Below, piece by piece: positions 4,779 through 32,962 of a stretch of 38,624 nucleotides of DNA. The translations under genes were made by a program, and so were the position numbers. Below the pieces are notes generated by a model, which was not told the origin of the DNA, did no database searches, and saw only the letters and a program-made list of their open reading frames with translations. Source of the DNA: Candidatus Falkowbacteria bacterium CG02_land_8_20_14_3_00_36_14 (lineage in GTDB: Bacteria > Patescibacteriota > Patescibacteriia > Patescibacteriales > UM-FILTER-36-11). Where the stretch lies: the NCBI GenBank assembly GCA_002781265.1, contig PETS01000021.1, positions 1 to 38,624 of the forward strand, written 5' to 3'. Within the stretch, counting starts at the first letter, position 1. Each line of letters begins with the position of its first letter.

Positions 4779-7475
4779 TTATCTTGTAGCCCCAGAATAA
4801 GCTATTGCCCTAACAATGTCCCAGGCAGAAGCTGTTGATGGGTTATAGCCGTATATAGCTTTAAATGTTTTAATAGCCGTTTTTTCGGAATTTAAGTTTC
4901 TATCAGACGGACGCAAGCCATAGGCCATAACTATGACAGCGGCATCATCATGCGGATTAGACCTATTCGGTTCTCTTAAGTATGTTTTTTTAAATGAAGC
5001 GGTGGCATTAGCTTCAGACAAGTCGTTTTTCTCCGAAGGCCATCGGCCATTGGCAATTTTAATGGCATCATTCCATTCTTCTTCTGATTTTGGCAGTTTG
5101 CCAAAAGCGGATTTATAAGAATTAACTACCCCGGCTCGTTCGCCTTCGCCTAAAAAGATAGTTGTTTTAGTGCCATAAGCGATAAAATTATTAATAGCAT
5201 TAACATTATCTTTAGACAGGCCGGACGCGTCTTTAATTAAATCAGAAACATATTTTTTAACGCTCACTTGCTCTTTGGCTAAATCCCTCTTAAAGCCAAG
5301 CTTTCCTAATAGGGCATTAACATTGGCCTTGATTATATCAGCGGCTTCAGTGGCAATAGTAATTATTTTTTGGGCAAACTCTTCTGTTATTTGGGCGGTC
5401 TTGTCCGCGACTTCTTCAATTTTTGCTTTAGTTTCATTGATTATTTCCGGTAAAGTGGTTTTGATTTCACTGCCGCAAGCTCTTTTTCTGGAATCTTCTT
5501 GAGCAGAAGTAAGAACGCAACCAGTAGGGGACTGGGATAAAATATTTCTATATTCCCAGCCATCAGTACAAATACCCTGCCATACATTATAAGTGGCCGT
5601 GGTGCAGTTTGAAGCAGACAGGCCGCTTGAATTGCCGCCACTGCTTGAAGACGCACAGCTATTGCCGCTTTGAGTATAGCCGGAATTGCATGTAATAGCG
5701 CAATTGGCGCCTACTGTTCCATTAGAGACTGTTTTATTGGAGCAAACTTGCAGTGCGGTTGAACTGGCCAAGGCGGTTTCATTGCCGCCGTCGTCAGCCG
5801 CGGTTACTTTATAATAATAACTAGTCCAGGAACTTGCGGCGGAATCAGAGTACGTTGTTCCGGAAATATCGCTGGTGTTAATCTGGGCATAGGTTGAGCC
5901 GTCAGTTGAACGGTAGACTTCATAACCAAGAAGATCGGTGATGGGGGTGGTGTTCAAGTTAGTGGTAACCGCTGTCCAAGAAAGAGCCACGGAAGTTCCG
6001 GAGCCGCTTGATTGGGCAAGGCCGGTGGGAGAAGCTGGAAAGAGAGAGTCCTGGGGTTGGGTAGCCGAGAAGACGGTCAAGTGGTTTGTTTTTCCAGTCA
6101 ATACCAATTTGTAATCATAGTAGCTTGTGCCGGCGGTTAAAGCGTCAATAAATACTTCATAGCCGGTTTGGGTGGCGCTGTCCGCGACTTGCGTCCATTC
6201 AGTATCTGAGACAGCGGATTTATAATAGGCGTTTCTTACGACCGAGCTTAAATTGATCCAGTTGTTCAAAGAATTATCCCAGTAGCTGGCGGTTAAATTT
6301 TTTAACTTGGAATAATCAATAATATTCATAGCCGCGATATCCGCTTTATAATAAACAAGCTCAATGTCTAAATAAACGTCTTCGCCCAGAGTATTAATGG
6401 CGGTGTTATTGCTATCGGTCGCGGAAACGGTTTTACCGAGTCCGCCTAATGGTTCGGCCGAAGTTGTCTCGGTAACAGCGGCTGTTTCTTGAATGGTTAA
6501 GTTGCCGCTATTGGAATCGTCTCCTAAAGCGTATGGTGGAGCGGTAATTTTTACGCCAGTGCCGTCTGAAGCTGTATCATCAACAGTGCCTCCGGAAGCC
6601 GGAGTAATTGATTTGGATTTTATGTTCATCGTCCAGTTGGAATCGCTGGTTAAAGCGATATTTATACCGCTTTGCGAAATACCGCCGGTTACCGTGATAT
6701 TGGTTTTTGTATTCGCGACTCTATAACTCCCGTCTTTATAGCCGTTAGCTCCGGCGCTTACTTTCCATAAACCATTAGATACAGCTAATGAATAAATACC
6801 GGTAGCGTCGGCCGCGCTATAAGCCATAGCGCCGTTAGTTGTTTCTTCGGCCCAGACCCAGGTGTTGGGCAGGGCTTCAGTGGAAGTTGAGTAAGTGCCG
6901 CTTAAGTCAGTATCAACATAAACCCGGCCGGAAATGGTGGTCGCGCCGACTGCGGTAAGAGTAATAGTATTGGCAGTAGAGCTGGCTGTGCCGGAAATGC
7001 TTGTTGGTTGGGGAGAAAGGTAATTCGGCTTATCCGCGCCTAATTTATAATTGCCGCTTGCTAGTTTAGGCACAGTCAAAGAGAATGTTCCGTTAGAGCC
7101 GGATTCGGCGCCGGTAAAGAAGTTGGAGGATGGGTTGCCGATCCAGACCCAGGCATTGGCAACAGCGGCTCCGTCTGTAACCGAACCGGCAACAGTAATA
7201 GTGCCGGTTGTAGCATCCGGAAGAGTAAAGTAGACGGCGCGCGGCATGTTGGTTACTTTAATAGATTCGTAAGTATTGCTTAAGAGCGCGCGGCTGGCGG
7301 CGGTAGGAGAGTAAGAGCCGTAGCCAGGAATATCAAGATGCATCTGATAGAATTTGCCAGACGCGGAACCTTTTACTTTAATAGTGGAAGTCGCGGCTAA
7401 TCCGTTTATGTCGGTAAAAGAGCGATAGCCGGTAGGTTTAGGGTTGCCTCCATCAATAAGCCACTTCTTCAACAA
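4779..7475 (-). CDS. large extracellular-type repeat protein (CarboxypepD_reg-like repeats, FN3, Cys-rich segment, tandem C-terminal module); possibly the C-terminal part of the upstream giant gene
   Basis: 898-aa ORF whose only start is a TTG, with no SD and no signal peptide. An FN3-like segment reads LSWTAV...GYEVYRS...YYYKVTAADDGGNE. Beta-sandwich repeats read ISGRVYVD...NGLWKVSA. Confidence 0.7.
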   Translation of the reverse strand: MLKKWLIDGGNPKPTGYRSFTDINGLAATSTIKVKGSASGKFYQMHLDIPGYGSYSPTAASRALLSNTYESIKVTNMPRAVYFTLPDATTGTITVAGSVTDGAAVANAWVWIGNPSSNFFTGAESGSNGTFSLTVPKLASGNYKLGADKPNYLSPQPTSISGTASSTANTITLTAVGATTISGRVYVDTDLSGTYSTSTEALPNTWVWAEETTNGAMAYSAADATGIYSLAVSNGLWKVSAGANGYKDGSYRVANTKTNITVTGGISQSGINIALTSDSNWTMNIKSKSITPASGGTVDDTASDGTGVKITAPPYALGDDSNSGNLTIQETAAVTETTSAEPLGGLGKTVSATDSNNTAINTLGEDVYLDIELVYYKADIAAMNIIDYSKLKNLTASYWDNSLNNWINLSSVVRNAYYKSAVSDTEWTQVADSATQTGYEVFIDALTAGTSYYDYKLVLTGKTNHLTVFSATQPQDSLFPASPTGLAQSSGSGTSVALSWTAVTTNLNTTPITDLLGYEVYRSTDGSTYAQINTSDISGTTYSDSAASSWTSYYYKVTAADDGGNETALASSTALQVCSNKTVSNGTVGANCAITCNSGYTQSGNSCASSSSGGNSSGLSASNCTTATYNVWQGICTDGWEYRNILSQSPTGCVLTSAQEDSRKRACGSEIKTTLPEIINETKAKIEEVADKTAQITEEFAQKIITIATEAADIIKANVNALLGKLGFKRDLAKEQVSVKKYVSDLIKDASGLSKDNVNAINNFIAYGTKTTIFLGEGERAGVVNSYKSAFGKLPKSEEEWNDAIKIANGRWPSEKNDLSEANATASFKKTYLREPNRSNPHDDAAVIVMAYGLRPSDRNLNSEKTAIKTFKAIYGYNPSTASAWDIVRAIAYSGATR

Positions 7476-10400
7476 AGAGGAAGCCGTGCTGGCCGGCAGT
7501 GCCGTTATTGAATTGGAGAGAAATAACTTGGAGATCGGCGGCGGCTACCGTAATATTTGCCGTGGTAGTGGCGGCGGAAAGGTTTAAGTTAGCTTGCGAG
7601 TTGGCGAATTGATCATAGTCAAGTTCATTCTCGCCGTAATTTGGCGTCCAAATATCTACGCGGTAATATCCTGTTGGCGCGCTGATGGTATAAGCGCCAT
7701 TGGCATCAGTAGAAGCGAAATATTCTCGGCCGGCAAGAGTTTCCGGGGTACCGTCGGAATTAGCGTCAGTGTATTTTACCGCTCGGATAGGCATGTAAGT
7801 TTGCGCCGAGCCGTCAATGGTTACGGTGCCGGAAATATTATAGAAACTAACTCCAGTCACCGGCCTTAAGTTGATGTTTGATTGGTTGGCGCTATTAACC
7901 GTGACCGCACTGTCGTATTGCAGCCAACCCACGCCTGGAGCGTCAGCTTCTATTGTCCATAAGCCGTTGTCAACATAAAGAATATAATTGCCCGAAGAAT
8001 CAGTCATTGTGTCCGAGTGTTCGGTGCCTCCGGAAACATAAGCCCAGACCGGAGCGTTTGGGACGGCTTGCCCCGAAGAGTTTAGGACTTTGCCAGAGAT
8101 GGTGTAAGCCGGCCTTTTTAGTTTTAACCGCAGGGGGTTTGTGCCGGCGTTATTATTGGAAGCGTCAGAAATAATCATTCCATTCAAATAGACATCGGCT
8201 GTAGTGTTGCCGTCCATGCCGACCGAGTTGGTGATTACATTAACAGACTTTTCCTGCGAATTGGGCATGCCGGGCTTAAAGGCGCCGATTGTCCAGTTGC
8301 CGGTGGAAGTGATTTTAAGGGTAAATTTGCCGTTTGTGTCCGCGGTAGCGTGGCTATTGCCAAAGTTTTGCGGCTGGTAAGCGTAGACTTCGGCCGAGCC
8401 CATGCCGTTTCCCGAATCGTCAATCACAAAACCGTTTATTGTCATTAGCGTCTGTCCGCTGATATTGAAAAATATTTTTTTATCATTATTGCCGCCTGAT
8501 GTTTCACGCACAGAAGTGATCGTATCGTTAGCGGCTGGAAGCGCGCTCCAATTTCCTTGCGGAGTGACAGTTATAGAGGTATTGATTATTAAAGACGTGA
8601 TAGTGGTGGTGGCCGCGGCCGCGCCAGTGGCAAAAGTTACCACATCGCCGACCTGTAAATTATTAGTATTCGCCATATTAAGCTGGACTGGCTCGGTATT
8701 GCCGATAGCGGCGTTAGAAGAATCGCCATCAGGATCAAGAGCTCTACTGGTGGCGGTTTCAATGCCGACCGTGACATTTACCATCATAGGCGGCATCCAG
8801 TCAGGCATTGGCGACGGGCCGGCCATCGGTCCTTTGGGCATCGCTGGTCCTACGCCGATTGACCAACTGCCTTCGGTTAAGTAAAAGGTGGCGTTAGGAT
8901 TAGTATTGCCTACATCATTTAAGGTTTTAACTTTGAACGCTGAAGGCGAATTGGCAAAAATATCAACATCATCGGCTACTCCGCTAGTTGAATAGTCGCC
9001 GGATAGATAAACCGTGACTGCGGCTTTGCCGGCGCCAGCCGCGTCTTGTTCAAGAGTAATGCTTTTTGAAGTCGCTCCGCTTACTGCGATAAATTCAGGC
9101 ATTGTTTTTCCCAAGTAGCTGTTTGAGCCGATAGTAACATACGGGTCGGTAAAGAGCATATAATCGCCGGAAATTAAATTAAAGAAAGTGGATGTGCCAA
9201 TGTCGTTGGAAAAAGTCGTAGTGTCGGCTTCCATCGGGCCGGTCATAAATGAGCCGAGGTAAATACTGGCGGTGCCGTCGTCTTGATTGACATTATTAGT
9301 GTTAACCACAACCGTTAAACTATCCGAACCGCTTTCGCTGATAAAGAAAGGCATAGTCATTATATTTTCCAAAAGACCGCCGTCAGAAGATTTTGTTTTA
9401 ATGTCCACAGAGTAGCCGGAGGTACCGAAGCCCTTAGGTACGGAAGAGTTTATAATGCCTTTTAAATCAAAATGCAAAAAGTCAATAAAGCCGTCCGGTC
9501 CGGTAGCAGTATTCAACATATTACTGGAAGAAGTGGCAATATCCAATTTTACGGTAATGACCGTATTGGAAGTTGAGGCTACGCCGCCCACGCCGGGTGA
9601 CAAAGTCGCGTCAAAAGTAATCGTGCCGCCTCCTTGATTATTCATATCATTATTAACCGGCGAGAAAGAGTCCTTAGATACCCCGGTTACATTAAAGCCG
9701 TTCGGGAAGGTAAGAACAATCTGCATGCCGTCTTGAAGAGCTATGGTAACCGGTATGTCAATAAAATAATTGGAAGTTTGTCCGGCCATACCGTTCATCG
9801 GGAAAGCGCCGCCGCCGAACATTCCCATTTTACCCATATCCATTCCCGGGCCGGAATTAGTAGTTGCTCCGCTTATTGGACCGCCGCCGCTCGCCATCAT
9901 TCCGCCGCCCGATGGTCCAAGCATGCCGTAGGTTTCGGCGCTGTCTTTTATCGGGTTGTGCGAGCCGTTATTATGCGTGGCGCTCCCCGCGCGGTTGCCG
10001 GTATCGGTAATAGCGTTGCCTGAGCGGTCAGTGGCATTGTCAACGAAAATTTGGAAAGAATCCGAAGCGCAGTCGTCGAATATTTGGTCGCCGCACATAT
10101 CTATGCCTTTTAAGGTGACGGTTTGAGTGTAAGCGTCGTAAGAAAGAGTTACGCCGGTTAGTGTTGACATTTGATTGCCGCCGACTGTGTCATACGGAGC
10201 AACGGCTGTAGCCGAGCAGGACCAACTGCCTGGCGTAGAGCAAGCGCCGCTTGCCAAAGTGTTAAGGTAATAATTGGCCGGATTTAAAACAGATGTTGTC
10301 CAGCCGGTTTCAGTCTTGGAAGCCGCGTTCATCGGTTCGGAGAAAGTGACCGCGATTTGGTAATCGTCGCCGTTGGCGTAAAGCACTTCCGGAGTATTAG

Positions 10401-13400
10401 AGTCGGCGCTACCTGTTTTAAAGCTGATAATATTGTTGGCCGCCAAAGCGTTGCCGGAAAGGTCGGTAACGCTCGTGGTAATCGTTAAAGTGTAGACCGT
10501 ATTGGAAGTCAAAGAATCGGTCGGCGAGAATTTGGCGGTGTTGGACATGGAATCGTATTTAATGGTTCCGGCCGCGCTTACCGTTCCTTTTTTTAAGGTA
10601 ACGCTTTGGGAATTAATAGTAGAAGGATTCATAGCTTCGGAAAAGCCAATTTCCATAGACGGGATAGCGACATCAACGACCGAGCCATTGCTGATGCCGT
10701 CGTTGTTTGTTGGATAAGATCCGGCTACGGTTGGAGGGGTTAAGTCAGCCGAGGAGCCGACTTGAAAACTGGAACTGAAAGACGATTGGGTTGCCAAGCA
10801 GGTATCAGGAGAAGTGGAGCAGTTCATCGGATTCCCAAGCCAAACTCCAAGCTGGCTTTTAACCGCGCCCATCACCCGCACTTCATACCAGCCACTGTTG
10901 GCAGAATTGGAATCCAAGGCAGTATGCGTCATAGTAACAATTTTTTTAGTGGCGTTATCTAAACTGACGCTGACGCTTTTATCCGTCACTTCCGTTGCGG
11001 TCCAGGAACTGACATTGGTGATTTTATAAAGTTTTAAATTAGTAGTGCTGATAGAAGTTGGATCCATCGGCTCGCTGAATTCAATCATAATAGCGGCCGA
11101 GGTAGGAATATTAAAAGATCCGGGAGTCGGATTGGTGCCGTTCACGAAAGGAGGCATAAACGCTCCGCCGCCGCCGAAGTTGCCGAAATCCATTCCGCCG
11201 CCGCCCCACATTCCGGTATTGTCGCCCATAGTACTAAACGAAAATTCATAGTTGCCGTTTGGTCGGTTTGAGTTTAAAGGATTGCTGTTCGTGTCTTTGA
11301 CCCCGGAAGTTATTACTGCCGTGTAAAAAGTGTTAGCCGAAAGGGCAGTGTCCGAATAGAAGCGGGCTTCATTAGCATAAGGGCTGGCGCTATAAACATA
11401 TTTTACTTTGCCGGCGATTTTAGTGTTGCCGTCGGCCGTAACATAAATATTTGAGCCGGCATTGGAAGCGTCCATATCGTCAATAGTGGCGGAGTTCATT
11501 TGATTAAAAAAGCTGATGACGATTGGCATTTGCCCTGATGCCATAGGAAGAGGAACGGTTGAGCAGTCGCCGGTACAGGCGATATTAAGAGGCGCCATCA
11601 TCATGCCGTCCATAGGCGCGGTCCAGGAAACTCCGCTCGCTCCGGAAGATCCGCCGGAAGAATTACTCATAAAGCCGGAAGATAAATATATTTGAAATCC
11701 CGAATCGCCGCGCATGACATCCTTTGATATGTCCATAAATCCGTTCTTAATAACTTTTATCCATTGCCAGCCCTCTGGTAAATTATTGTCGCCAAAAGTG
11801 AAGGCGCCGTTTGAGGTCGTGGTGGCGGTGGAAGTGGAAATGCCGTCAATAATTACGAAAGCGTCTTGCACCGGATTGCCGCTTGAATCATAGACAGTAC
11901 CGTTTAAGTCAGCAGTTGAATTAGAATCATTCCATGAAGTGGCAGAGATTATATCAATAGTAACCGGATTGGATTTGGCTGTTGTTTCCGTATCAGTCGG
12001 ATACATTCCCAAGAAAGTGTCATTACCAGTATCGTCAATCGCCCTTAAATAATATTGAATAGAAGTAGTGTCGTCCCAGCCGCCGTTCCAGGCGATAAAA
12101 CAGCGGTAAAGTCCGGTGTTGCCGGCCATGGCCGGTTGAACACAAGTGGAAGTGGCATTACCAAACGCTTGTGCATTAACTTTATAAGCAAGCTCAGCGG
12201 TTGCCAAAGTCCGATCGTCTCCCATGCGGGCGTAAAAAACAAGATTTCCTCCTTGAGGCGCTTGCCAAACCGGCATATGGTCAATCATCGGCGGGTTAGA
12301 ATCCGTGCCGCCGATTTCGGAAGTTAAAGTAGCCGGAGCCGAAGCAACGGCCGCGGATTTATTGCCGGCCATATCAATCGCTACCACATAAGCGCGATAA
12401 CTGCCGGTTGACAAAAGCGCGCCGGCGCTGTCAAAGGACATAGAAAAGCCGCTACCGGTGAAAGTGTATGTTGAAGCGGCCGAGCCGCCCTGCCACATAT
12501 ATTGGCCATAGGCAGTACTATAAACAGAGTGTACCGCCGTATTTAGCGCGACGCCGTCAAGCAATAAATATATTTCATATCTGTCAAAAGATGGATCAGA
12601 GGTTGAAGTCGGCGTCCAAACAATCCTGACATCCTCGCCTTGTAAGCCGTAATTAGAGCTGTCCGGATCATTTAAGGAGACATTAGTTGCCGCGGTTGGC
12701 GCTGTTCCGTCCCCGCCGGTGTTAGGCAAATTAGGAGTGGGGTTTGATAAATAAATCCAATCTCCGCTGGTATTATAGTCATTGCCGGTTGTTCCCATTC
12801 TGGCGATTGATTGGTTGTATTCACTATTGGGCTTAAAATCGCCGGTTGTCCATTGGCTGGCGGTTACCGCCGCCGCTTCACCGGCTTTGCTTGGACCGCA
12901 GTATTGAATGTAGTCAATAATTGTTGCGCCGGCATTTTTTAAAGTTATGTCGCCGCCAACAGTGGATATCGGCGTTCTTAAACCGGTATAAAGAGATCCT
13001 TGACCGTCAGAAGTATTGGCGTCATTTAATCCGGTTTGATTCCAGTAAATAGTGACAAAACTATTAGCCGTCATTGAAACATCAGGAATAGTATAAATTT
13101 GCGTGGTTGAAGTAGCTATATTCAGCGTCCAGTTGTTAATGGAAATAGAAGTTGAAGAAGCGTTATAAAGTTCAATCCAGGCCGAGCTGGTGGCAGTGTT
13201 GTATAAAATTTCATTAATAATTATATTTCTGCTCGCGGAAGATATGGCTTCGCTTTCCGTGGCCGATAATCTATTTTGCGGTCCGGCAAGACCGGCGGCT
13301 CGGGTGATAAAATCTCCGCTGTTGTTAGTCGTATCCGAACCATTGCCTTTACTGCTGTCAATGCCGGTAGCCATACTGGTTGGCGTTGAACTTGGATAGG

Positions 13401-14688
13401 CCTTGCGTTCCAGAGAGCCGTTGGCGGGCGGACTGACAACCGCCATGCCTTCAATTGTCTGTGTTTGGTTTCCCCAGCCGACTTTATCAATAACCATGGC
13501 GTCAATAGTGGTAGAAGTGGAAATGTAAACGCCGCCGTTAGGCGCCAGCCCGTTAGTCGTCGCGTCATAGGTCGCGTCCGGCGTTCCATAGGCCGCGGCC
13601 CAATTAGTATTCCAATCAGTAGACGCGATTAAAAAATATCCTTTGGCCGGAATGTCATCTCCGGTGTCATTATTAGTAGTTAAAGTTAATGTCTTATTGG
13701 TAGTGGTGCCGGTACAGCCAGCGCCCGTACAGTCAACAATATGCAGATTAAGATTTCCCGAGATAGCGCCGGTTGCGTTGGCAATTCCATTAGCAGGAAT
13801 TAAATCATATGACTGATCTGTCTTATTATATATCTCAATAAATTCAACATTCGCGGTAGAAGAAGCGATTTGCACTTCGGAAATTGCCAAAGGCGCGCTC
13901 ATCTGCATATTATCGCCGCCGCCTTCCGTGCCTAAAGTTACCATTCCGAACCATCTGCCCATTGATTCGCTCGGCCAGTTGGTTATAGAAGCGGAAGTTA
14001 CGTCTACGCCATTTTGAGGAATTTTAGTTGTGAATTTATGCAAGGTGGCGGCGTTAATATCCGCCGCGCTAGCCGCGACAAAAATCACCAGTGGAGCGGT
14101 AAAAGAAACGGGAATAGTTAAGTTTAAATTGGAAAATACGGTTTGCGAAACACTAAAGGTGCCGCCGTACGGGTCAGTGATTGTCTGAGTTGTCCAGTCG
14201 CCGGCTTTTGTTGCCGTGGTTGAGGAAATTAAAGTGTCTTGATTGGTTTCAAAATTGCCGTCCCCGTCGTCAAGCCATAATGATATGCCGGAAGTCGTAG
14301 TTGTCGCCAAAGCGTTTAAATCAGCGGCGACGCTAAAAGGGCTGGCCGTGCACGGTCCGCCGCCCATCGGGCAATTCATGCCGGCTTGAAGCTGGAGAGT
14401 AATGCCGTTAAGTCGGTTAGTGCCGGCCGTGGTGTCGTAAGCCGTAATTTTAATAATTGATTCCGGCGTGGACGTGGCGTCCAAAAATACGTCCGGTGTC
14501 GCGCCGCCGTCGTTGGTGTACTGGGCGTCAATGCCGCCGGCCGCGCTGGCATCGGGCACGTAATTTATAAAAGGAATGCTGACGCTCCACAGGACCATAG
14601 TAATAATTACCAGCCATACTGTAAATTTTTTAGAAAAATTTTTTAATTTGCCAAGCAGATGCTTAGCCATTGATTTGTTTAAATGCAT
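7453..14688 (-). CDS. giant secreted/anchored mosaic surface protein (2 lamin-tail domains, Big_5/SbsA-type Ig repeats, CarboxypepD_reg repeats)
   Basis: 2,411-aa ORF with an ATG preceded by a strong SD and an N-terminal hydrophobic anchor FTVWLVIITMVLWSVSIPF...ASAAG. LTD motifs are ISEVQIASSTANVEFIEIYN and IIINEILYNTATSSAWIELYN. FSEPMD/FSEAMNP/FSEPMN motifs mark Ig-like repeats. Confidence 0.9.
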   Translation of the reverse strand: MHLNKSMAKHLLGKLKNFSKKFTVWLVIITMVLWSVSIPFINYVPDASAAGGIDAQYTNDGGATPDVFLDATSTPESIIKITAYDTTAGTNRLNGITLQLQAGMNCPMGGGPCTASPFSVAADLNALATTTTSGISLWLDDGDGNFETNQDTLISSTTATKAGDWTTQTITDPYGGTFSVSQTVFSNLNLTIPVSFTAPLVIFVAASAADINAATLHKFTTKIPQNGVDVTSASITNWPSESMGRWFGMVTLGTEGGGDNMQMSAPLAISEVQIASSTANVEFIEIYNKTDQSYDLIPANGIANATGAISGNLNLHIVDCTGAGCTGTTTNKTLTLTTNNDTGDDIPAKGYFLIASTDWNTNWAAAYGTPDATYDATTNGLAPNGGVYISTSTTIDAMVIDKVGWGNQTQTIEGMAVVSPPANGSLERKAYPSSTPTSMATGIDSSKGNGSDTTNNSGDFITRAAGLAGPQNRLSATESEAISSASRNIIINEILYNTATSSAWIELYNASSTSISINNWTLNIATSTTQIYTIPDVSMTANSFVTIYWNQTGLNDANTSDGQGSLYTGLRTPISTVGGDITLKNAGATIIDYIQYCGPSKAGEAAAVTASQWTTGDFKPNSEYNQSIARMGTTGNDYNTSGDWIYLSNPTPNLPNTGGDGTAPTAATNVSLNDPDSSNYGLQGEDVRIVWTPTSTSDPSFDRYEIYLLLDGVALNTAVHSVYSTAYGQYMWQGGSAASTYTFTGSGFSMSFDSAGALLSTGSYRAYVVAIDMAGNKSAAVASAPATLTSEIGGTDSNPPMIDHMPVWQAPQGGNLVFYARMGDDRTLATAELAYKVNAQAFGNATSTCVQPAMAGNTGLYRCFIAWNGGWDDTTSIQYYLRAIDDTGNDTFLGMYPTDTETTAKSNPVTIDIISATSWNDSNSTADLNGTVYDSSGNPVQDAFVIIDGISTSTATTTSNGAFTFGDNNLPEGWQWIKVIKNGFMDISKDVMRGDSGFQIYLSSGFMSNSSGGSSGASGVSWTAPMDGMMMAPLNIACTGDCSTVPLPMASGQMPIVISFFNQMNSATIDDMDASNAGSNIYVTADGNTKIAGKVKYVYSASPYANEARFYSDTALSANTFYTAVITSGVKDTNSNPLNSNRPNGNYEFSFSTMGDNTGMWGGGGMDFGNFGGGGAFMPPFVNGTNPTPGSFNIPTSAAIMIEFSEPMDPTSISTTNLKLYKITNVSSWTATEVTDKSVSVSLDNATKKIVTMTHTALDSNSANSGWYEVRVMGAVKSQLGVWLGNPMNCSTSPDTCLATQSSFSSSFQVGSSADLTPPTVAGSYPTNNDGISNGSVVDVAIPSMEIGFSEAMNPSTINSQSVTLKKGTVSAAGTIKYDSMSNTAKFSPTDSLTSNTVYTLTITTSVTDLSGNALAANNIISFKTGSADSNTPEVLYANGDDYQIAVTFSEPMNAASKTETGWTTSVLNPANYYLNTLASGACSTPGSWSCSATAVAPYDTVGGNQMSTLTGVTLSYDAYTQTVTLKGIDMCGDQIFDDCASDSFQIFVDNATDRSGNAITDTGNRAGSATHNNGSHNPIKDSAETYGMLGPSGGGMMASGGGPISGATTNSGPGMDMGKMGMFGGGAFPMNGMAGQTSNYFIDIPVTIALQDGMQIVLTFPNGFNVTGVSKDSFSPVNNDMNNQGGGTITFDATLSPGVGGVASTSNTVITVKLDIATSSSNMLNTATGPDGFIDFLHFDLKGIINSSVPKGFGTSGYSVDIKTKSSDGGLLENIMTMPFFISESGSDSLTVVVNTNNVNQDDGTASIYLGSFMTGPMEADTTTFSNDIGTSTFFNLISGDYMLFTDPYVTIGSNSYLGKTMPEFIAVSGATSKSITLEQDAAGAGKAAVTVYLSGDYSTSGVADDVDIFANSPSAFKVKTLNDVGNTNPNATFYLTEGSWSIGVGPAMPKGPMAGPSPMPDWMPPMMVNVTVGIETATSRALDPDGDSSNAAIGNTEPVQLNMANTNNLQVGDVVTFATGAAAATTTITSLIINTSITVTPQGNWSALPAANDTITSVRETSGGNNDKKIFFNISGQTLMTINGFVIDDSGNGMGSAEVYAYQPQNFGNSHATADTNGKFTLKITSTGNWTIGAFKPGMPNSQEKSVNVITNSVGMDGNTTADVYLNGMIISDASNNNAGTNPLRLKLKRPAYTISGKVLNSSGQAVPNAPVWAYVSGGTEHSDTMTDSSGNYILYVDNGLWTIEADAPGVGWLQYDSAVTVNSANQSNINLRPVTGVSFYNISGTVTIDGSAQTYMPIRAVKYTDANSDGTPETLAGREYFASTDANGAYTISAPTGYYRVDIWTPNYGENELDYDQFANSQANLNLSAATTTANITVAAADLQVISLQFNNGTAGQHGFLFVEEVAY

Positions 14689-19090: not shown

Positions 19091-22000
19091 ATGATTAAAT
19101 TACGAAAAGCATTTGTTGTCAGCTTGAGCATAGTCACCATTTTGGTAATGAGCGGAGTGGCGGTAACTCCGGTTAGCGCGGCCGCTTCTGCCGGTGACTT
19201 GGTAAAAATTGACGGTGTTTCTGCCGTTTATTACTTAAGTGCTGATGGTTATAGGCATGTTTTTGACCATGAAAAAACATATTTTACATGGTATGATGAT
19301 TTTACTGCCGTAGATCCAATAACCCAAGAAGAGCTGGAAAATTGGCCAAGAGGAGATAATGTTGATGTAAGACCGGGAACCAAACTGGTAAAAAGTCCTG
19401 ATGAATCAACAGTTTATACTGTTGAAAAGGGCGGTATTTTAAGATCAATCGTTAGTGAAGCTAACGCGATTAGTCTTTATGGCGCTGATTGGGCAAAAAA
19501 AGTAATTGATATTATTCCTTCATTTATGGTTAATTATACTGTTGGAGCTCCTTTAACAGAAGGAGTATATCCTGTCGGAACTTTGGTAAAATCTTCCAGT
19601 AGCCCCGATGTATATTACTATGATGGGACTAATTACCGCGTATTCTCCAATGAAGCTTCATTTGTTAATAACAGATTTAATTTTACTAATGTAGTTACTG
19701 TACCTGACACTATGACTATTACCGCGGGCGGAACTACCATTAGCGGACCTGAAGACGCTATAATTGACACTTCTGAAGGCGGAGGCGGAACAGCCCCATC
19801 TGGAAGCGGCTTAACCGCTTCGCTCGCTTCCACCTCCAAATCTGCCGGCAATATTCCGGCCGGTTCGCCGAATGAATTTTTGACGCTTAACCTAACAGCA
19901 GCCAGCGATGGCGATGTTGAAGTGTCTACCATTAAGCTAAGCGCTTATGATTTAGGCACCGCTATTTATATTGACAACGTTACTTTCTATGATGCTGGCG
20001 TTAAAGTGGGCACAGCCAAGAATGTCAATTCCAGCCGAGAAGCCATGTTTAACTTCTCTACTCCGATCAAGGTTACAGCCGGTTCTACCAAGACCTTAGT
20101 GGTAAAAGCCACTATTGAAGCCGGCCAAAGCGGAAATTTTGCCTTAGGCGTTAAAACCGCGGCTGACATCACTACCAACGGCGCGACTGTGAGCGGGTCT
20201 TTCCCGGTTGTCGGCAACTCCCAAGCTATTGTTACCGGTGTTGATATCGGTACGGTCACTATGTCCAGTGTCGGCACATCCGATACATTTAATGACTTTG
20301 GCGAAGATCATGTTAAATTAGCCAGCTTTAATTTAGCCGCGGCCAACGAGCCGATTATTTGGAGTTCAATGATAATGAAAAACGGCGGCACTAATACTGC
20401 CGGCATTGTCGGCAATATGAGCGTTGAAGTTGACGGCACAGTAATCGTTTCTGGCGCTGAATTGGCTGATAAGTTTGTCAATTTTGATATGGGCAATTTA
20501 ATTATTGCCAAAAATGACACCGTTTCCGTTGAAATCTACGGAGATCTTGGCATTGCTAATGTCAATAATACTATTGACCTTTATTTTGACGATGCCAATG
20601 ACTTGGTCTTTACCGGCCAGGATTTCGGCTATGGTGTTACGATCGGCACTGCCGGTTTCGGCGGCTTAAATGCTGTTTCTGATGGCATAGTTGTTACCTT
20701 AACCGCCGGCGATGTTGTTATTGATATGGACAAGACCGCTACTCCTTCCAAAGACGTCAGGCCTGATGATAATGATGTAGTGTTAGCTACCATTAAAGTA
20801 GTTTCTAATGGTGAAAACGCTACCATTACCTCAATTGGCGCTGGCAATGACACCTTTATGATCAGCGACCCGGGATCAGCCAATGCCGATATGAATGAAA
20901 TTGAAAATGTTGAATTAAAAGACATTGAAACCGGAGCGGTTTATGATATTACTCATGCCAGTTCATCGGCTACGGCCACTAATATCGGCTTGACATTAAC
21001 CGATGATATCAGCTTGAAGAAAGGCGTAACCAAGACCTTCCAATTAAGGATTGATTTATTAGGCGCCAATGATACAAATGGCGTTGATACTAATGACTCA
21101 TTCCAGGTTACTTTGGAGGACGGCGCGTTTGCCATTACCGGAGATGATTCCGATGATGACTTGTCAAACAACATCACTCCGACTTCCGTCACCAGCGCTA
21201 TCGCTACTGTTAAATCAGCTTCCTTAACTTGGAAGACCACTTCTTTAGCCACCCAGACAATCGTTCCCGGAGCTAAGAATATCGTTATTTACAGAGCTAG
21301 CGTTGATACAGGCGCGTCATCCGCGGTTACTTTGACTTCGGTCAAAATTTCAGCCACCACTACCGTCGCTACCGCGTTTGACGACAATAATGTTTCCCAG
21401 TTAAGATTATATATTGACGGCAAATTGGCTAAGACTGTTTCCGGACAAATTGCTGAAGGCGGTTCAGCCACCGGCTATATCAACTTTACTTCGCTTAACG
21501 CTACCAATAGCGTAATTGCCGCGGGTAAATCTGTTGTGGTAGAGGTTCAAGCGGATTTCGCTGGCACCTTTAATCCGGTCGGTTATATCCAGTTGGAGAT
21601 TGACAGCGGTACTGCCGATATCATTGCTAAAGATATAGATAATAACGCGGTAGTAGAAAGCGTTTCTAATGTCGGCACCCAATCAAGGACAGTTATCTTA
21701 GCTTCAGCCGGCACTTTAAAAGTGCAATTAAGGACAACCGAGCCGAAAGCTAATGACAGCAGCTATATTTTGGCGAGCACGGAAACAAGACCGGACAAGT
21801 ATTTAGCCGAATTAGTATTAACTGCCGCCAATGAGCCGGTTAAGATTAAGACTTTGGTCTTGGAAGAATACGGCAGTTCCACTGATTCTGACATTAAGAC
21901 TGTTAGATTATATAACAGCGCGGGCGCGATGATTGCCGAAAAAGCTCCGGCGGCCGCCGGCCATGTCAACTTTGATGCCTTAAATATCACCTTGCCGGCC

Positions 22001-22780
22001 GACACGGCGACTTCCTGGTTCATCGGTGTTACTACCAAATCAATTAATGCCGCCAGCGATGCGGAAGGCACAGGCACTTACGGACGCGAGATTCAGTTCA
22101 GTTTAGCCAGCGAAGGAGTGCTAACCTCAACGTTCAGCTTGCTGGTTAATCAGGCCGTAACCGCGGCCGGCGTGGATACCGGATCCGATATTACCATAAT
22201 TGAAGACGCGAACGGCACGCTTGCCACCGGCGAATATACGGGCAGCACAACTAAGTCAATGTTGGCCACTACTACCGGTTCTATCCTGACCTCAGTCGTT
22301 AATACCATGGCTGATGGCACATTGGCCGGAGGCACGGGTAAAACCGTCGCCAAGTATAAGTTTGTCTTTGACAACGGCAATAACCGGAACAGCGACAATA
22401 CCGAGCTGAAAGCCCAGCTGAGACAGCTTATATTAACGCTCGCGACCAGCACCGGCGCGTCATTATCTAACGTTGAGGCTTATATTGAAGGCGATTCCTC
22501 CAATAAGACTACGGCTGTTAATATCGCGGCCAACAGTAAATTCACGATTGATTTAACAACCTTGTCCGGCACGACCGAGAAAGTTGACGGCACGGTAACG
22601 TTGGTAATTATCGGCGATATTGTAACTGACGGCACAGCTGATTACATGCAGACCGAGATCAACAATTTGAATACCGATTTTACCTATAACGGCAATGATG
22701 GCAATACAGGTATGCATTGGACGCTTTTGTCATCCGATTTGGGTATTTCGGATGTTAACGGCGCGACTCTGTCCAACTAA
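19091..22780 (+). CDS. secreted repeat-rich surface protein (S-layer/adhesin-like)
   Basis: 1,229 aa with a signal peptide MIKLRKAFVVSLSIVTILVMSGVAVTPVSAAASA. The N-terminus carries a duplicated LVK...VYY...DG..R.F module, followed by many beta-rich Thr/Ser/Ala/Val repeats and a strong terminator. Confidence 0.9.
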   Translation: MIKLRKAFVVSLSIVTILVMSGVAVTPVSAAASAGDLVKIDGVSAVYYLSADGYRHVFDHEKTYFTWYDDFTAVDPITQEELENWPRGDNVDVRPGTKLVKSPDESTVYTVEKGGILRSIVSEANAISLYGADWAKKVIDIIPSFMVNYTVGAPLTEGVYPVGTLVKSSSSPDVYYYDGTNYRVFSNEASFVNNRFNFTNVVTVPDTMTITAGGTTISGPEDAIIDTSEGGGGTAPSGSGLTASLASTSKSAGNIPAGSPNEFLTLNLTAASDGDVEVSTIKLSAYDLGTAIYIDNVTFYDAGVKVGTAKNVNSSREAMFNFSTPIKVTAGSTKTLVVKATIEAGQSGNFALGVKTAADITTNGATVSGSFPVVGNSQAIVTGVDIGTVTMSSVGTSDTFNDFGEDHVKLASFNLAAANEPIIWSSMIMKNGGTNTAGIVGNMSVEVDGTVIVSGAELADKFVNFDMGNLIIAKNDTVSVEIYGDLGIANVNNTIDLYFDDANDLVFTGQDFGYGVTIGTAGFGGLNAVSDGIVVTLTAGDVVIDMDKTATPSKDVRPDDNDVVLATIKVVSNGENATITSIGAGNDTFMISDPGSANADMNEIENVELKDIETGAVYDITHASSSATATNIGLTLTDDISLKKGVTKTFQLRIDLLGANDTNGVDTNDSFQVTLEDGAFAITGDDSDDDLSNNITPTSVTSAIATVKSASLTWKTTSLATQTIVPGAKNIVIYRASVDTGASSAVTLTSVKISATTTVATAFDDNNVSQLRLYIDGKLAKTVSGQIAEGGSATGYINFTSLNATNSVIAAGKSVVVEVQADFAGTFNPVGYIQLEIDSGTADIIAKDIDNNAVVESVSNVGTQSRTVILASAGTLKVQLRTTEPKANDSSYILASTETRPDKYLAELVLTAANEPVKIKTLVLEEYGSSTDSDIKTVRLYNSAGAMIAEKAPAAAGHVNFDALNITLPADTATSWFIGVTTKSINAASDAEGTGTYGREIQFSLASEGVLTSTFSLLVNQAVTAAGVDTGSDITIIEDANGTLATGEYTGSTTKSMLATTTGSILTSVVNTMADGTLAGGTGKTVAKYKFVFDNGNNRNSDNTELKAQLRQLILTLATSTGASLSNVEAYIEGDSSNKTTAVNIAANSKFTIDLTTLSGTTEKVDGTVTLVIIGDIVTDGTADYMQTEINNLNTDFTYNGNDGNTGMHWTLLSSDLGISDVNGATLSN

Positions 22781-22924: not shown

Positions 22925-23236
22925 ATGAAACAGGATAATATTAAGAAAATTGAAGAATTAAAAGAAAAAATTATTCCGATTTTAAAGGCAAATGACGTAG
23001 TCAGGTCGTCTGTTTTTGGATCGTTTGCCCGCGGGGAAGACACGCCGGAAAGCGATATTGATTTGTTGGTGGAATTGGAAGACAATAAAAGTCTTTTAGA
23101 TATGGTTCATCTTAAAAACGAGTTGGAAGATTTTCTTCGGAGAAAAGTTGATATTATCACTTACGATTCAGTCAATCCCCGCTTAAAAGATTATATTTTT
23201 AGAGACGAAATAAAAATATATGGACAAAGACAATAA
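22925..23236 (+). CDS. mntA: MNT-type nucleotidyltransferase antitoxin (type VII TA)
   Basis: GSFARGEDTPESDIDLLVE (GSxxRGxxxxxSDIDL) motif. I prefer the ATG at 22925 over the TTG at 22907, which lies inside the predicted promoter. Confidence 0.85.
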   Translation: MKQDNIKKIEELKEKIIPILKANDVVRSSVFGSFARGEDTPESDIDLLVELEDNKSLLDMVHLKNELEDFLRRKVDIITYDSVNPRLKDYIFRDEIKIYGQRQ

Positions 23237-23553
23237 AGTATTTTTAGGGCATATTATTGATTGCATCGTTAATATTGAAGATTATACGAAAAATTTTACC
23301 GCTAACGATTTTTCCCAATAATCGTATGATTGTTGACGCGGTGATAAGAAATTTGGAAATTATCGGCGAAGCGGCGAGAAATTTAGCCGATAATTTTAAG
23401 AGTGTTAATTCGCATATTCCGTGGAGAGATATTGCCGGTTTAAGAAATATATTAATACATGAATATTTTGGGGTTGATAAGGAAAAAGTATGGAAAGTTA
23501 TTCAAAAAGATTTGCCCAGTTTTAAAAAAGAAATAGAACTATTATTAAAATAA
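23220..23553 (+). pseudogene. hepT: HepT (DUF86) RNase toxin gene, frameshifted in a T5 run
   Basis: The N-terminal 33 codons (MDKDNKVFLGHIIDCIVNIEDYTKNFTANDFSQ*) are read from an ATG at 23220 that overlaps the mnt stop. The remainder (NNRMIVDAVIRNLEIIGEAARNL...RNILIHEY, the Rx4HxY motif) is in another frame. The switch is at TTTTT 23309-23313. Confidence 0.8.
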
Positions 23554-25070: not shown

Positions 25071-27308
25071 ATGCCGAAAAAAATTTATTTAACAATCTTA
25101 AAATCAGGAATTTATCTTTCTTTTTTATCGGTTTTTTTAGTGTCCGGCAAGCTATTTTTCCCCTACATAACGACCAAGCAGATTTTTTTTAATATTTTAA
25201 CTGAAATATTATTTTTCTTTTGGCTGGTTTTCATAATCCAATATCCATCTTACCGACCGTTCATCTTTGTTAAAGGAGGTCTAAAAAAATCCCTGATTCC
25301 CTTAGGGCTGGTAAGTTTTTTTATTATAATTACCTTAAGCAGTATTTTGGGGGTGGATTTTAATTTAAGTTTTTGGGGCGATGCGGAGAGAATGCTCGGT
25401 GTTTTTCATGTCCTTCATTTTTTAGCTTTTTATTTTATAATAATTACCGTTATGCTAAGCTGGAAGGACTGGTACGCGTTAATGCTCGTTTCCGTAGCCG
25501 CGGCCGCGTTTGTCAGCATCCATGCATTAACGGTAATAGCGTATAGCACGGTGGGTAACGCCGCTTATGTCGGCGGTTATCTGATTTTTAATATATATTT
25601 TAGCTTGATTTTGTTTTTTCGGACCGATAAGAAAATTTTTTGGCGCTGGCTCTATCCGGCGGCGATTATCCTTATGCTGTTTGCTTTGAAGAATACCGGC
25701 GTGGCCGGAGCTTACGTCGGACTGGGTTCCAGCGCAATATTGGCTTTATTTTTATTCGGATTATTGAGTCGGGATAAAAAGGTAAAAATTTATATTTTAT
25801 CCGCCGCTGTTTTATCCATAGTTTTAATAACCGGAATTTTTTTATATAGGAATAATTCTACGGTGAGAAGCGTTAAATTTTTAGATGACGTATTATCGGA
25901 GATTTCCGTGGGAAAAAATACTTTCCAAACCCGGTTAATTTCATGGAAAACCGCCTGGAAGGATTTTCCGGCGCACCCTTTGCTCGGAACCGGCTATGGA
26001 AATTTCGCCATTACCTTTGACAAATATTTTGACCCGAGCTTTTATAACTATACTCGTTCAGAAACTTATTTTGACCGGGCGCATAACAATCTGATTGACA
26101 TTGCTTCCACGTCCGGGGCATTGGGGCTATTGGCTTATTTATCTATTTTTGCCGCCGCCGGTTATTATTTAGTAATCGGATATAGAAAAGATAAAATAAA
26201 ATTACATGATTTTGTTTTATTAATTTCATTAATTATCGCTTATTTTGTGCAAAATTTAGCCGTTTTTGATTCCTTGGTTACTTATATTCCTCTAATGGCG
26301 ATGCTCGGCTATATTTATTGGCTTGCCAGAAATGATCAAGAGATAGATTATATAAAAGATGACTCTTTTAATAATAAGGAAATTTTTGCCGGTTTTTTAA
26401 TTGGATTGTCAGTACTGATAATATTGTTTAAATATAATATCGGGCCTCTGCGGACGTTTATTGGCACGATTAAAGGGCAAATCGCTTTCGCGCAGGGCGA
26501 TATCGCTGGGGGAGTGGAAATATATAAAGGCGCTTTAAGCCGCCATACGGTCCTTGACCGCGACAGCCGCGACAGCTTGGTCCGTTCCATGACTTCGGTC
26601 CTGCTTAATGAGAGCGTAAGCCAAAGTCAATTGGAAGACGTCTTGGCCTTTGTTGAAAAAATGGCGGAAGAGAATATTAAATATAATCCGAAAGACAGCT
26701 TAACCCAGACGGAACTGGCCCAGTTTTTTATTTCCGCCGCGCAAGCCAGTAAAGATGATAACGAAAAATTTTTTTCATACCTTAATCAAGCGATGGAGGC
26801 GGCAAATAAAGCGATAGATTCAAGCCCGGGGAGGATACCTCTTTATTATGTCAAGGCGCAGATTTATAAAATGCGCGGCGACAGCGATAATGCGATTGTG
26901 ACATTGGAATATGCCGCTGGCCTTAATGAAAAATATTATGATAGTTTTTGCAATTTAGCCAAATATTACTTTATGGCGCGAAATGAAGAAAAAGGATTTT
27001 CTGCTATGGATAAATGCATTGATTTGGGCGGCGCGGAATTATTAACGCCGGTTGATTACGTTATAAGTTTAATAAATTTTTATATAGACAAGCAGAATGA
27101 TTGGCCGAGAGTAGTGAAATTATATGAAAGGTTGGTGAAGATGCAGCCGGACCAAGCGGTTAATTGGGTAAAATTAGCGGCGTCTTATGAACGAATTGGC
27201 GAATATGGGGAAGCAATTGAAGCGGCCAGAAAATCCGTTGAACTGGACCCGACCTTAAAAGATGAAGTGGAACAGTTTATTAATGCTTTAGGAAAAATAA
27301 GTTTATAA
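25071..27308 (+). CDS. O-antigen-ligase-like (Wzy_C) polytopic membrane protein with C-terminal TPR domain, paralog 1
   Basis: 745 aa with about 10 or more TM helices, GTGYGNFAITFDKYF, and FDRAHNNLIDIASTSGALGL (Wzy_C-like). The C-terminal ~300 aa is soluble with TPR-like repeats. Confidence 0.88.
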   Translation: MPKKIYLTILKSGIYLSFLSVFLVSGKLFFPYITTKQIFFNILTEILFFFWLVFIIQYPSYRPFIFVKGGLKKSLIPLGLVSFFIIITLSSILGVDFNLSFWGDAERMLGVFHVLHFLAFYFIIITVMLSWKDWYALMLVSVAAAAFVSIHALTVIAYSTVGNAAYVGGYLIFNIYFSLILFFRTDKKIFWRWLYPAAIILMLFALKNTGVAGAYVGLGSSAILALFLFGLLSRDKKVKIYILSAAVLSIVLITGIFLYRNNSTVRSVKFLDDVLSEISVGKNTFQTRLISWKTAWKDFPAHPLLGTGYGNFAITFDKYFDPSFYNYTRSETYFDRAHNNLIDIASTSGALGLLAYLSIFAAAGYYLVIGYRKDKIKLHDFVLLISLIIAYFVQNLAVFDSLVTYIPLMAMLGYIYWLARNDQEIDYIKDDSFNNKEIFAGFLIGLSVLIILFKYNIGPLRTFIGTIKGQIAFAQGDIAGGVEIYKGALSRHTVLDRDSRDSLVRSMTSVLLNESVSQSQLEDVLAFVEKMAEENIKYNPKDSLTQTELAQFFISAAQASKDDNEKFFSYLNQAMEAANKAIDSSPGRIPLYYVKAQIYKMRGDSDNAIVTLEYAAGLNEKYYDSFCNLAKYYFMARNEEKGFSAMDKCIDLGGAELLTPVDYVISLINFYIDKQNDWPRVVKLYERLVKMQPDQAVNWVKLAASYERIGEYGEAIEAARKSVELDPTLKDEVEQFINALGKISL

Positions 27309-27310
27309 TT

Positions 27311-29749: not shown

Positions 29750-30883
29750 TTATTTGTTATAAATTTTCAGATATTTTTTAAAAGTTTCTTCCAGGAGAAA
29801 CTTTTTTGATTGATTAAGATTCTTTTCGCCCAAAGAAAGAGATAAATTTTTATCCGTGGCTAATTTTTTAAATTTGGTTAAAAATTCTTTTTTATTATTA
29901 AATTCATAAAGCTGATTCGGTGAATTGTCTAAAATTTCCGCGTTGCCGCCGACAGAGGAAGCCAGTATGGGCGTGCCGGCGAATAAGGATTCAATCAAAG
30001 TTATAGACAGGCCTTCATATCTTGAAGGCAGAACGAATAAATCAAAGCCCTTTAGATATTGGCAGGCGTTGTTGATTTCTCCCAATAAAAATATTTTATC
30101 GGCCAATTTAAGATTGTTTATCATATTTTCAAATTTTTTTCTTTTTTCCCCCGCGCCGATAATCAGCAAAGCCGCCTCGGGTTTTATCTTTAATATTTCC
30201 GGAAAAATATCAATTATAAATTCATAATTTTTGGCCATTACCAGCCGGCCGATAGAGCCGATAAGATATTTATTTTGTATATTTATTTTAAATTTTTTTT
30301 CAAAATAATTTTTAGCATGGCCGGCGGAAAGAAAATTAAGATTTCGGGGTTCAAGGCCGTTAAAAATTATTTTTCCCCCTTTAACAAGTTTAATTTTTTG
30401 TGCTTGGGCTAAATTTTTTCGGCTGATGAAAATCGGTTTGTCAACATAAAGAAGAAGAATTTTAAAAAATAATAGATAAATTATTTTTATTATTTTAGGC
30501 GCCTGGTAATTTTCATCCAAAACGGATAAGCCGTGGAAAGTAAAAATCGTGGTTATATTTTTATTTGCCAGTTTGGCGCCGATTGCCCCCAAGAGGGCAT
30601 TGGCGCTGTTAAAATGGACCGCGCTAAAATTATTATTTTTAAGATAATTTTTTAATTCAAAAATAAAAAATAGATTAGCTAAAGGATTATGGGTTCTTTT
30701 CAGCCATTTGAAATTAAAATATGGAATTGCCGCCGATTTTAATTCATTTTTAAGATAATCTCCGCAGCCATATCCGACAAGGGCTTCTATTTTACATTCT
30801 TTTAATTTTTTTGCTAAATTAAGCACAAAATTTTGCGCTCCGCCGATTTCTCCCTTGGTTATTACTATAAGAATTTTTGGCAT
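29750..30883 (-). CDS. GT4-family glycosyltransferase
   Basis: 377 aa with the EX7E region YEGLSITLIESLFAGTPILASSVGGNAEIL. Confidence 0.9.
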   Translation of the reverse strand: MPKILIVITKGEIGGAQNFVLNLAKKLKECKIEALVGYGCGDYLKNELKSAAIPYFNFKWLKRTHNPLANLFFIFELKNYLKNNNFSAVHFNSANALLGAIGAKLANKNITTIFTFHGLSVLDENYQAPKIIKIIYLLFFKILLLYVDKPIFISRKNLAQAQKIKLVKGGKIIFNGLEPRNLNFLSAGHAKNYFEKKFKINIQNKYLIGSIGRLVMAKNYEFIIDIFPEILKIKPEAALLIIGAGEKRKKFENMINNLKLADKIFLLGEINNACQYLKGFDLFVLPSRYEGLSITLIESLFAGTPILASSVGGNAEILDNSPNQLYEFNNKKEFLTKFKKLATDKNLSLSLGEKNLNQSKKFLLEETFKKYLKIYNK

Positions 30884-30966
30884 AAAAAATTTATAAATTA
30901 TAAGTTGACTTTTACTGTATTTTATTTAATAATAACTTATATAAGCATTAAATTCAAGGTGCAGAC

Positions 30967-30991
30967 AAAACTAAGTAATACTTAGTTTTTT
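30967..30991 (+). terminator. terminator-like hairpin in the leader of the UGDH-like gene
   Basis: AAAACTAAGT-AAT-ACTTAGTTTT plus extra Ts, with no upstream plus-strand gene to terminate. It could be an attenuator element. Confidence 0.3.
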
Positions 30992-31004
30992 ACTATTAAA
31001 TCAA

Positions 31005-31103: not shown

Positions 31104-31112
31104 AAAATAAAA

Positions 31113-32058: not shown

Positions 32059-32064
32059 TGGTTT

Positions 32065-32195: not shown

Positions 32196-32205
32196 GAATA
32201 TATAT

Positions 32206-32955: not shown

Positions 32956-32962
32956 TAAATAT

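Follow-up and report, generated by a model that had tools for sequence, protein, structure and literature searches.

The DNA analysed here, called the window throughout, is a stretch of 38,624 nt of contig PETS01000021.1 from an uncultured Candidatus Falkowbacteria bacterium belonging to the candidate phyla radiation (CPR). Its minus strand carries two large neighbouring open reading frames (ORFs), ORF1 and ORF2, the second lying in the +1 frame relative to the first (Table 1). Public GenBank annotation treats the halves as separate, ordinary hypothetical proteins, one of 2,411 and one of 897 amino acids (aa). An earlier interpretation, the sequence-only reading, had proposed that they are separated by a frame change and may form one gene of ~3,300 aa. 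Its description of the junction is exact to the base (TGA at 7455-7453, TAG at 7547-7545, 2,411 and 898 codons). The +1 frame is open from just past this TAG and runs for 921 codons until the stop at 4781-4779; the ORFs as called overlap by 23 nt. Throughout the 95-nt stretch in which both frames are open, homology to relatives is found in the ORF1 frame only, the relatives reading ...ANITVAA.DLQVISLQFNNG..QHGFLFVEEV.Y. Chance cannot account for a +1 frame that stays open for 898 codons and is colinear with homologues.

Table 1. Features of the giant gene and lesions mapped in it and in sister contigs (positions are those of the window).
Feature	Position	Strand	Description	Carriers or basis
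ORF1	14688..7453	-	2,411 codons, ATG start, TGA stop at 7455-7453; upstream part of the ancestral giant gene	
ORF2	7475..4779	-	898 codons from TTG; +1 frame relative to ORF1	
Double-open stretch	7547..7453	-	95 nt, both frames open	Three-frame translation
Downstream part of the ancestral gene	4779..7454	-	891 codons and stop, now in the +1 frame; homology restarts at GAT 7454-7452 (DGGNPKPTGY...)	
Lesion	7455..7456	-	One extra T, TAT GAT to TAT TGA T; either adjacent T may be the inserted one	Alignments with L008 and L004
TTG TTG pair	7470..7475	-	Start used by gene callers for the 898/897-aa ORF; in the ancestral frame, inside F-V (ttT GTT Gaa)	
ORF1 modules	7453..14688	-	Putative N-terminal signal or anchor, 2 LTD stretches, 3 Big_5 stretches, CarboxypepD_reg beta-sandwich modules	
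Putative export signal or signal anchor	14539..14688	-	MHLNKSMAKHLLGKLKNFSKKFTVWLVIITMVLWSVSIPFINYVPDASA/AGG	Read from the sequence
Beta-sandwich module straddling the break	7360..7540	-	Window coordinates mapped approximately	AlphaFold2 model of P0001
Conserved C-terminal module	4782..5480	-	Ends ...AYGLRPSDRNLNSEKTAIKTFKAIYGYNPSTASAWDIVRAIAYSGATR; missing from the ORF1 product	
13-nt slippage deletion between AAAAAATTT repeats	14635-14623	-	Separates ATG from signal peptide	L009, L011-L014
GG deletion	13365-13364	-		L011-L014
118-nt insert resembling a miniature inverted-repeat transposable element (MITE)	site 13207-13203	-	TTTAT target duplication	L013, L001
TG duplication	12347	-		L001, NCBI PJB20525.1
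Multi-copy mobile element with terminal inverted repeats (TIR)	7833-7817	-	~120 codons upstream of the junction	L002, L003, L009, L010, L011, L013

The two frames are parted by a single extra T, which causes the +1 shift at the very end of the overlap and by itself creates the TGA stop at 7455-7453, so that ...GCT TAT GAT GGA... becomes ...GCT TAT TGA TGG... in the window. Contig L008 (JGI 3300008004), which is 99.94 % identical to the window across 11.2 kb, reads GCTTATGATGG at the junction where the window reads GCTTATTGATGG, the missing T being the sole difference there (likewise GCTTATTGATGGAGGC in the window and GCTTATGATGGAGGC in L008). Its protein P0021 (2,137 aa), a member of the 898-aa protein's own cluster, reads ...FVEEVAYDGGNPKPTGY..., as predicted for the window with the T deleted. 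Deletion of the T from the window yields a single 3,302-codon ORF. The more distant contig L004 (83 % nucleotide identity) reads ACTTATGACGGAGGC at the junction, again without the extra T; likewise it has GTGACTTATGACGGAGGC where the window has GTGGCTTATTGATGGAGGC. The protein encoded on L004, P0001 (827 aa, 92 % identical), was found with a junction-spanning query and is uninterrupted (...QHGFLFVEEVTYDGGNPKPTGYRSF...). P0021 and P0001 share FVEEV(A/T)YDGGNPKPTGY across the junction, the predicted fused junction peptide being VAYDGGNPKPTGYRSFTD, and P0002 (38 % identical) is likewise continuous. On these alignments, ORF1 and ORF2 together make up a single ancestral gene of 3,302 codons, broken here by a real extra T.

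The wider family has the same architecture. Searching P0001 against 1.84 billion representative proteins returned 370 relatives at E<=1e-3. In 62 of the 66 best relatives a single aligned stretch spans the junction with at least 30 residues on each side, and 39 of these 62 belong to proteins of 2,000-3,500 aa. The closest full-length relative, P0037 (3,234 aa), aligns over residues 1-3234 with residues 31-3302 of the fused protein in one high-scoring segment pair at 57.8 % identity. No split at the same position was found among the relatives examined (the best 66 of 370, plus L004, P0002 and P0037). Comparison of the window with L004 gave a ratio of nonsynonymous to synonymous substitution rates (dN/dS) of 0.093 for the part upstream of the junction and 0.081 for the 376 codons that follow it downstream. 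These values indicate that both halves evolved as constrained coding sequence for nearly all their history, which fits a recent lesion.

Thus the proposal of one gene is borne out by the T-deleted protein, intact across the junction in L008, by the colinear 3,234-aa homologue and by the single-protein architecture of the family; the orthologous loci, which the sequence-only reading had suggested aligning, are fused or in frame across the site in L008, L004, P0002, P0037 and the 62 relatives. Two of its statements need narrowing. The ORFs are one gene by descent, but not one mis-sequenced gene: the copy in this genome is truly broken. Nor would every single-nucleotide indel restore the frame: fusion needs either a 1-nt loss or a 2-nt gain.

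Two candidate split relatives were set aside. L006 (P0004) appeared to end near the junction and is uninformative, its homology starting and stopping mid-domain beside unrelated genes. Positions 6549-8339 of L006 encode part of a family member (596 aa, 49 % identical), lying between truncated carbamoyl-phosphate-synthase and truncated helicase genes; the homology stops ~14 residues past the window junction position, and the contig is probably chimeric or rearranged. L007 (P0003) appeared to start near the junction and is likewise uninformative, as this start adjoins a common artefact sequence with a coverage of 2.7x. Scans of genome-contig and metagenome-contig collections returned no further relatives, and an exact DNA-pattern scan of metagenome contigs for the alleles with (T+) and without (T-) the extra T gave no match. 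The allele frequencies given below are therefore taken entirely from the protein-cluster listing.

The next question is whether the T is present in the organism. ENA contigs from three samples, bearing MEGAHIT ('k141') and SPAdes ('NODE') names, carry exactly this 898-aa ORF and an identical 23-nt overlap. Their identity to the window is 99.94-99.99 %, and they have differing single-nucleotide polymorphisms (SNPs) and indels. In the 90 % identity cluster, eleven of the 15 listed members are 897 or 898 aa long and stand for ~22 contigs (ENA, JGI, NCBI); among the listed members one, P0021, is fused. The ~22 contigs include one from a second NCBI metagenome-assembled genome (PJA11311.1, Candidatus Falkowbacteria). 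Because the same T recurs in many assemblies on different SNP backgrounds, it is not a one-off assembly error. A sequencing or assembly error, with the T absent from the organism's DNA and the genome encoding an intact 3,302-aa protein, would agree with the near-identical L008 lacking the T, with the poor assembly of giant repetitive genes (contigs do break within this one) and with the visibly chimeric state of several related contigs (L006, L007). However, recurrence of the T across MEGAHIT, SPAdes, JGI and NCBI assemblies, samples and SNP/indel haplotypes speaks against it. The site itself (TAT/GAT) is not error-prone for short reads: mononucleotide runs in 7453-7547 reach 3 at most, and the indel is T versus TT. 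Other indels, namely a CC/CCC difference in a HepT-like gene and the 13-nt and GG deletions of Table 1, recur across assemblies too. We therefore regard an error as very unlikely.

The HepT-like toxin gene (window 23221-23553) provides a parallel case. At 23314-23316 the window has CCC, against CC in L010 and L011, and its copy of the gene is frameshifted. At least 30 contigs carry the intact 110-aa form, and ~20 carry frameshifted 98/75-aa forms. Such a spread across assemblies indicates that indel alleles genuinely segregate in this population. The HepT-like gene adjoins its MNT-type (NTP_transf_2) partner.

The intact product is predicted to be a giant Sec-exported protein of many beta-sandwiches, resembling an adhesin or pilin. 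ORF1 matches Big_5 (91 bits, cut-off 23.6), CarboxypepD_reg (82, cut-off 32.3) and LTD (51.8, cut-off 34.3), all above the Pfam gathering cut-offs, and ORF2 matches CarboxypepD_reg (34.9 bits, cut-off 32.3). CarboxypepD_reg domains flank the junction at ORF1 residues 2196-2274 and ORF2 residues 94-169, in agreement with the earlier statement that repeats of this type continue across it. The putative N-terminal signal of ORF1 has a basic n-region, a hydrophobic core at residues 24-38 (Kyte-Doolittle 2.38) and an AxA motif (ASA/AG). In the first 70 residues of ORF2 there is no hydrophobic segment (best 15-residue Kyte-Doolittle mean 0.61), so the lack of an export signal on the 898-aa ORF, already pointed out from the sequence, holds, while ORF1 has a putative one. 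The C-terminal module, which matches no Pfam family, is 44-60 % identical to the C-termini of P0037, P0039, P0050 and P0060. In other relatives its place is taken by SLH-like sequence (P0045) or a transmembrane anchor (P0062), and for this reason the module may attach the protein to the cell envelope.

The position of the break within the protein was examined with an AlphaFold2 model that covers residues 310-569 of P0001 and uses a 26-sequence family alignment. The mean predicted local distance difference test score is 91.1, and the junction (Y132/D133) falls at the hairpin turn that links strands 122-133 and 136-149 within a single beta-sandwich. According to this confident model, the break lies within a folded domain, at the tip of a beta-hairpin, and not at a domain border. 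Since no Pfam family matches the junction-straddling module, even at E<=1, the mid-domain placement is drawn from the model. Foldseek returned tandem beta-sandwich pilins and adhesins (E 3e-6 to 1e-4) with low TM-scores (0.2-0.3), matches that support a shared fold class only.

At the level of sequence, ORF2 lacks a credible start of its own. Two TTG codons are adjacent at 7475 and 7472, of which NCBI uses the second (897 aa); the next canonical start is ATG 7343. The predicted N-terminus of the 898-aa ORF is (M)LKKWLIDGGNPK.... The 21 nt upstream of the TTG are GC-rich coding sequence with no Shine-Dalgarno (SD) motif, whereas ORF1 has a perfect AAGGAGG 6 nt before its ATG. The sequence-only reading had called this start weak, and the missing SD is as it described; the TTG at 7475 is not the sole start, given the TTG at 7472, and the missing SD says little in this organism, where an SD-like motif precedes only 4 of the 22 window genes. 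Of more weight is that 19 of these 22 genes start with ATG behind AT-rich leaders. Most likely the TTG is not a real initiation site and would be a by-product of ORF calling.

These data bear on the possibility of a functional two-gene arrangement, in which ribosomes would terminate and then reinitiate at TTG 7475/7472, 20 nt upstream of the stop, to make a separate 898-aa protein that works jointly with the 2,411-aa one. The stop and candidate start lie within 23 nt of each other, close enough for translational coupling; two proteins are annotated by gene callers and in GenBank, and most window genes lack an SD anyway. However, with the break in the middle of the modelled beta-sandwich, the domain would have to fold from two half-domains, and the downstream product would be without a signal peptide though it is predicted to consist of extracellular-type modules. 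The TTG in GC-rich coding sequence is also unlike the usual window start, no relative is split here, and the intact allele is present in the same population. Such an arrangement is very unlikely.

Alternatively, programmed +1 ribosomal frameshifting at UAU-UGA-U, of the RF2/antizyme type, could give the full-length protein from the T+ allele. Sites in prfB and antizyme genes shift by +1 at a stop codon followed by U; that of prfB is CUU UGA C with an upstream SD. The shift required here is exactly +1 at a stop followed by U, the T+ allele is common and ORF2 is still intact. However, the break is not conserved, L008, L004 and all family members examined being in frame, and P-site UAU (tRNA-Tyr) cannot re-pair with the +1 codon AUU. 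No SD-like GGGGG or AGGAGG is found 3-6 nt upstream, where the sequence is GAAGAAGUGGCU, nor any GGAGG or GGGGG stimulator in GUUGAAGAAGUGGCU; the GGAGG just past the stop is ordinary D-G-G coding sequence that is also present in intact alleles. Moreover, T+ haplotypes such as L001 carry extra ORF1 knock-outs, which would be unexpected if the full-length product were needed. Of the explanations considered, programmed frameshifting is the least probable. Two further routes past the stop were tried and rejected. Recoding of UGA (genetic code 25) fails, as a ribosome reading past the TGA would reach a TAA after five codons and TGA ends 3 of the 22 window ORFs. Transcriptional slippage would act on an A/T run, and there is none at the site. 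Elsewhere in the window, a suspected third split gene (31113-32054 and 32020-32460) was also dismissed: its 313-aa UDP-glucose-dehydrogenase-like ORF looks complete and its 146-aa ORF looks spurious.

The extra T is accompanied by other lesions of the giant gene in sister contigs, which were surveyed at ~99.7-99.9 % identity to the window (Table 1). The MITE-like insert (L013 2783-2905; L001 1-67 matches its last 67 nt) is AT-rich with 16-nt imperfect inverted ends (GGTACTGTCGCCAATT / GGCCGTGTCGCCAATG), and no other full copy exists within the window. At the site of the TIR element, L009, L010, L011 and L013 depart from the window at 7817 and L002 and L003 join it at 7833, giving an unusually long target duplication of 16-17 nt (TCCGGCACCGTAACCAT). 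The element, seen as its ends since all contigs break inside it, has imperfect ~55-nt terminal inverted repeats with TG..CA termini and two AAATGTCATA motifs per end. The window itself begins inside the right end of this element (1-90), the copy in the giant gene of the six sister contigs being a second one; sequence of the element also lies at L002 1-141, L009 13286-13409 and L010 16855-16994. Truncated proteins in the 90 % cluster agree with the lesion sites in 12347..14635. L004, intact at the junction, has its own 32-nt deletion ~370 codons past it (L004 2460-2500; window ~6290-6330), which removes ...NIIDYSKLKNLT... and splits that gene copy into 827-aa and 436-aa ORFs. In L012, at ~10205 (window 9846), a GGA-to-TGA nonsense change lies less than ~120 nt from the contig end beside two other private SNPs and may be an artefact.

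Beyond the giant gene, the same comparisons turn up only three indels, of which one, the HepT frameshift, is coding and the other two are the intergenic differences at 4301 and 18655. Disruptive lesions are thus strongly concentrated in the giant gene, at ~0.6 per kb by our own estimate from small numbers, which is near the intergenic density. At window 4301 an additional C is present in L002 and L008, and at 18655 a TGT is present in L011 and L012.

The lesions are relevant to reversible phase variation, in which insertion and deletion of the T would toggle the C-terminal third or the whole adhesin. Contingency loci classically encode surface proteins, genomes that are ~99.9 % identical differ in which of the two alleles they carry, and the T+ allele is found on several SNP backgrounds. 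However, the site has no simple-sequence tract (TT versus T, longest run 3), so that no raised rate of reversible slippage is expected, and the transposon, the MITE and the 13-nt deletion are essentially irreversible. Phase variation is highly improbable.

We therefore favour, with a probability of about 0.8, an ordinary frameshift-disrupted gene: the gene would be in decay in this population, with the T+ form segregating as an allele that truncates the protein or abolishes its function. The extra T would stop translation after residue 2,411, at the beta-hairpin tip within the folded module, and would leave the final 891 codons, which encode the conserved C-terminal module among other parts, stranded in the +1 frame. 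This strain would make at most the truncated 2,411-aa protein without its C-terminal module, and the 898-aa ORF would not be meaningfully translated, or its product would stay cytoplasmic for want of a signal. As the most widespread lesion, the extra T was probably the first, and the later ones would have arisen under relaxed selection or under selection for loss. Since later lesions hit ORF1 itself, some of them on T+ haplotypes such as L001, we suggest that the cell can do without even the truncated product, or that selection acts against it, and that the gene is probably being lost in this population.

Several observations weigh against this reading. ORF2 contains no secondary stop or frameshift in 891 codons, which fits continued translation equally well; an intact ORF2 would nevertheless be expected if the insertion is recent, because the population differs by only ~0.1 %. 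The within-population SNPs in the gene (13 nonsynonymous, 12 synonymous) give a ratio of nonsynonymous to synonymous polymorphism (pN/pS) of ~0.3, although they are few and several lie near contig ends. This value is above the between-species 0.09 but is not neutral, and full pseudogene status is thus not demonstrated. The intact allele was seen on one contig only (L008). Finally, the assemblies are independent as assemblies and haplotypes, not necessarily as laboratories, and many contigs possibly derive from one field site with partly overlapping reads; the samples behind ERZ27293347/362/373/411, ERZ17986947, ERZ17912254 and JGI 3300008004, 3300008093/94 and 3300025022 seem to come from a single groundwater or geyser location.

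Within the reading of a decaying gene, a more specific proposal may be made tentatively: positive selection for losing or shortening a giant surface fibre, for example in escape from phage or with changed host attachment of an episymbiotic CPR bacterium. The pattern behind it is the presence of at least six independent knock-out lesions within one ~99.9 %-identical natural population, together with the related species' own 32-nt deletion. Neutral decay after the first hit is the alternative, and we consider the selective account possible but doubtful.

Other differences and genes in the window are recorded for completeness. At 20221-20253, seven substitutions in 33 nt separate the window from L010 (D to S, T to M, the rest synonymous), the contigs being otherwise ~99.9 % identical. 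The cluster sits in a 1,229-aa ORF (19091-22780) with no Pfam match; its changes are not A-specific and it looks like a short recombination tract. The same ORF holds most other nonsynonymous SNPs outside the giant gene. Two tandem paralogous Wzy_C (O-antigen-ligase-like) and TPR proteins of 745 and 744 aa are encoded at 25071-29545, followed at 29750-37367 by a glycosyltransferase / sugar-epimerase cluster, which places the giant gene near a cell-envelope glycan locus.

A literature search on Falkowbacteria frameshifts and on pseudogenes of giant CPR genes found nothing. The locus is a known kind of disrupted gene, apparently unrecognised in public annotation, and implies no new mechanism. For annotation, the halves should be treated as one frameshifted gene with an intact form of 3,302 aa, as counting them separately distorts surveys of gene families and of giant proteins in CPR genomes. 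For biology, the locus offers a checkable case in which small indels and mobile elements are taking apart a very large surface protein in a wild, uncultured population.

The locus may be compared with several known systems. It shares with bacterial frameshift-split genes and young pseudogenes the adjacent same-strand ORFs colinear with an intact homologue, the 1-nt insertion, the fortuitous downstream start and the further lesions; unlike typical cases, it comprises 3,302 codons, and the disrupted and intact alleles segregate together in a natural population of uncultured CPR bacteria. As at the prfB site, there is a +1 change exactly at an in-frame UGA, but here UAU replaces CUU, no SD-like stimulator lies upstream, orthologues do not conserve the site and the insertion is recent. 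Frameshift alleles of a surface-protein gene coexist in one population, as at phase-variable contingency loci, but no repeat tract marks the indel and the accompanying transposon, MITE and deletions are irreversible. The tandem modules, putative N-terminal export signal and C-terminal module recall giant beta-sandwich adhesins and pilins (CnaB/Ig-like PitA and SpaA; Salmonella SiiE), although with TM-scores of 0.2-0.3 and a C-terminal module outside Pfam the likeness is one of fold class. In its LTD, Big_5 and CarboxypepD_reg modules, the protein resembles the large surface proteins of CPR bacteria.

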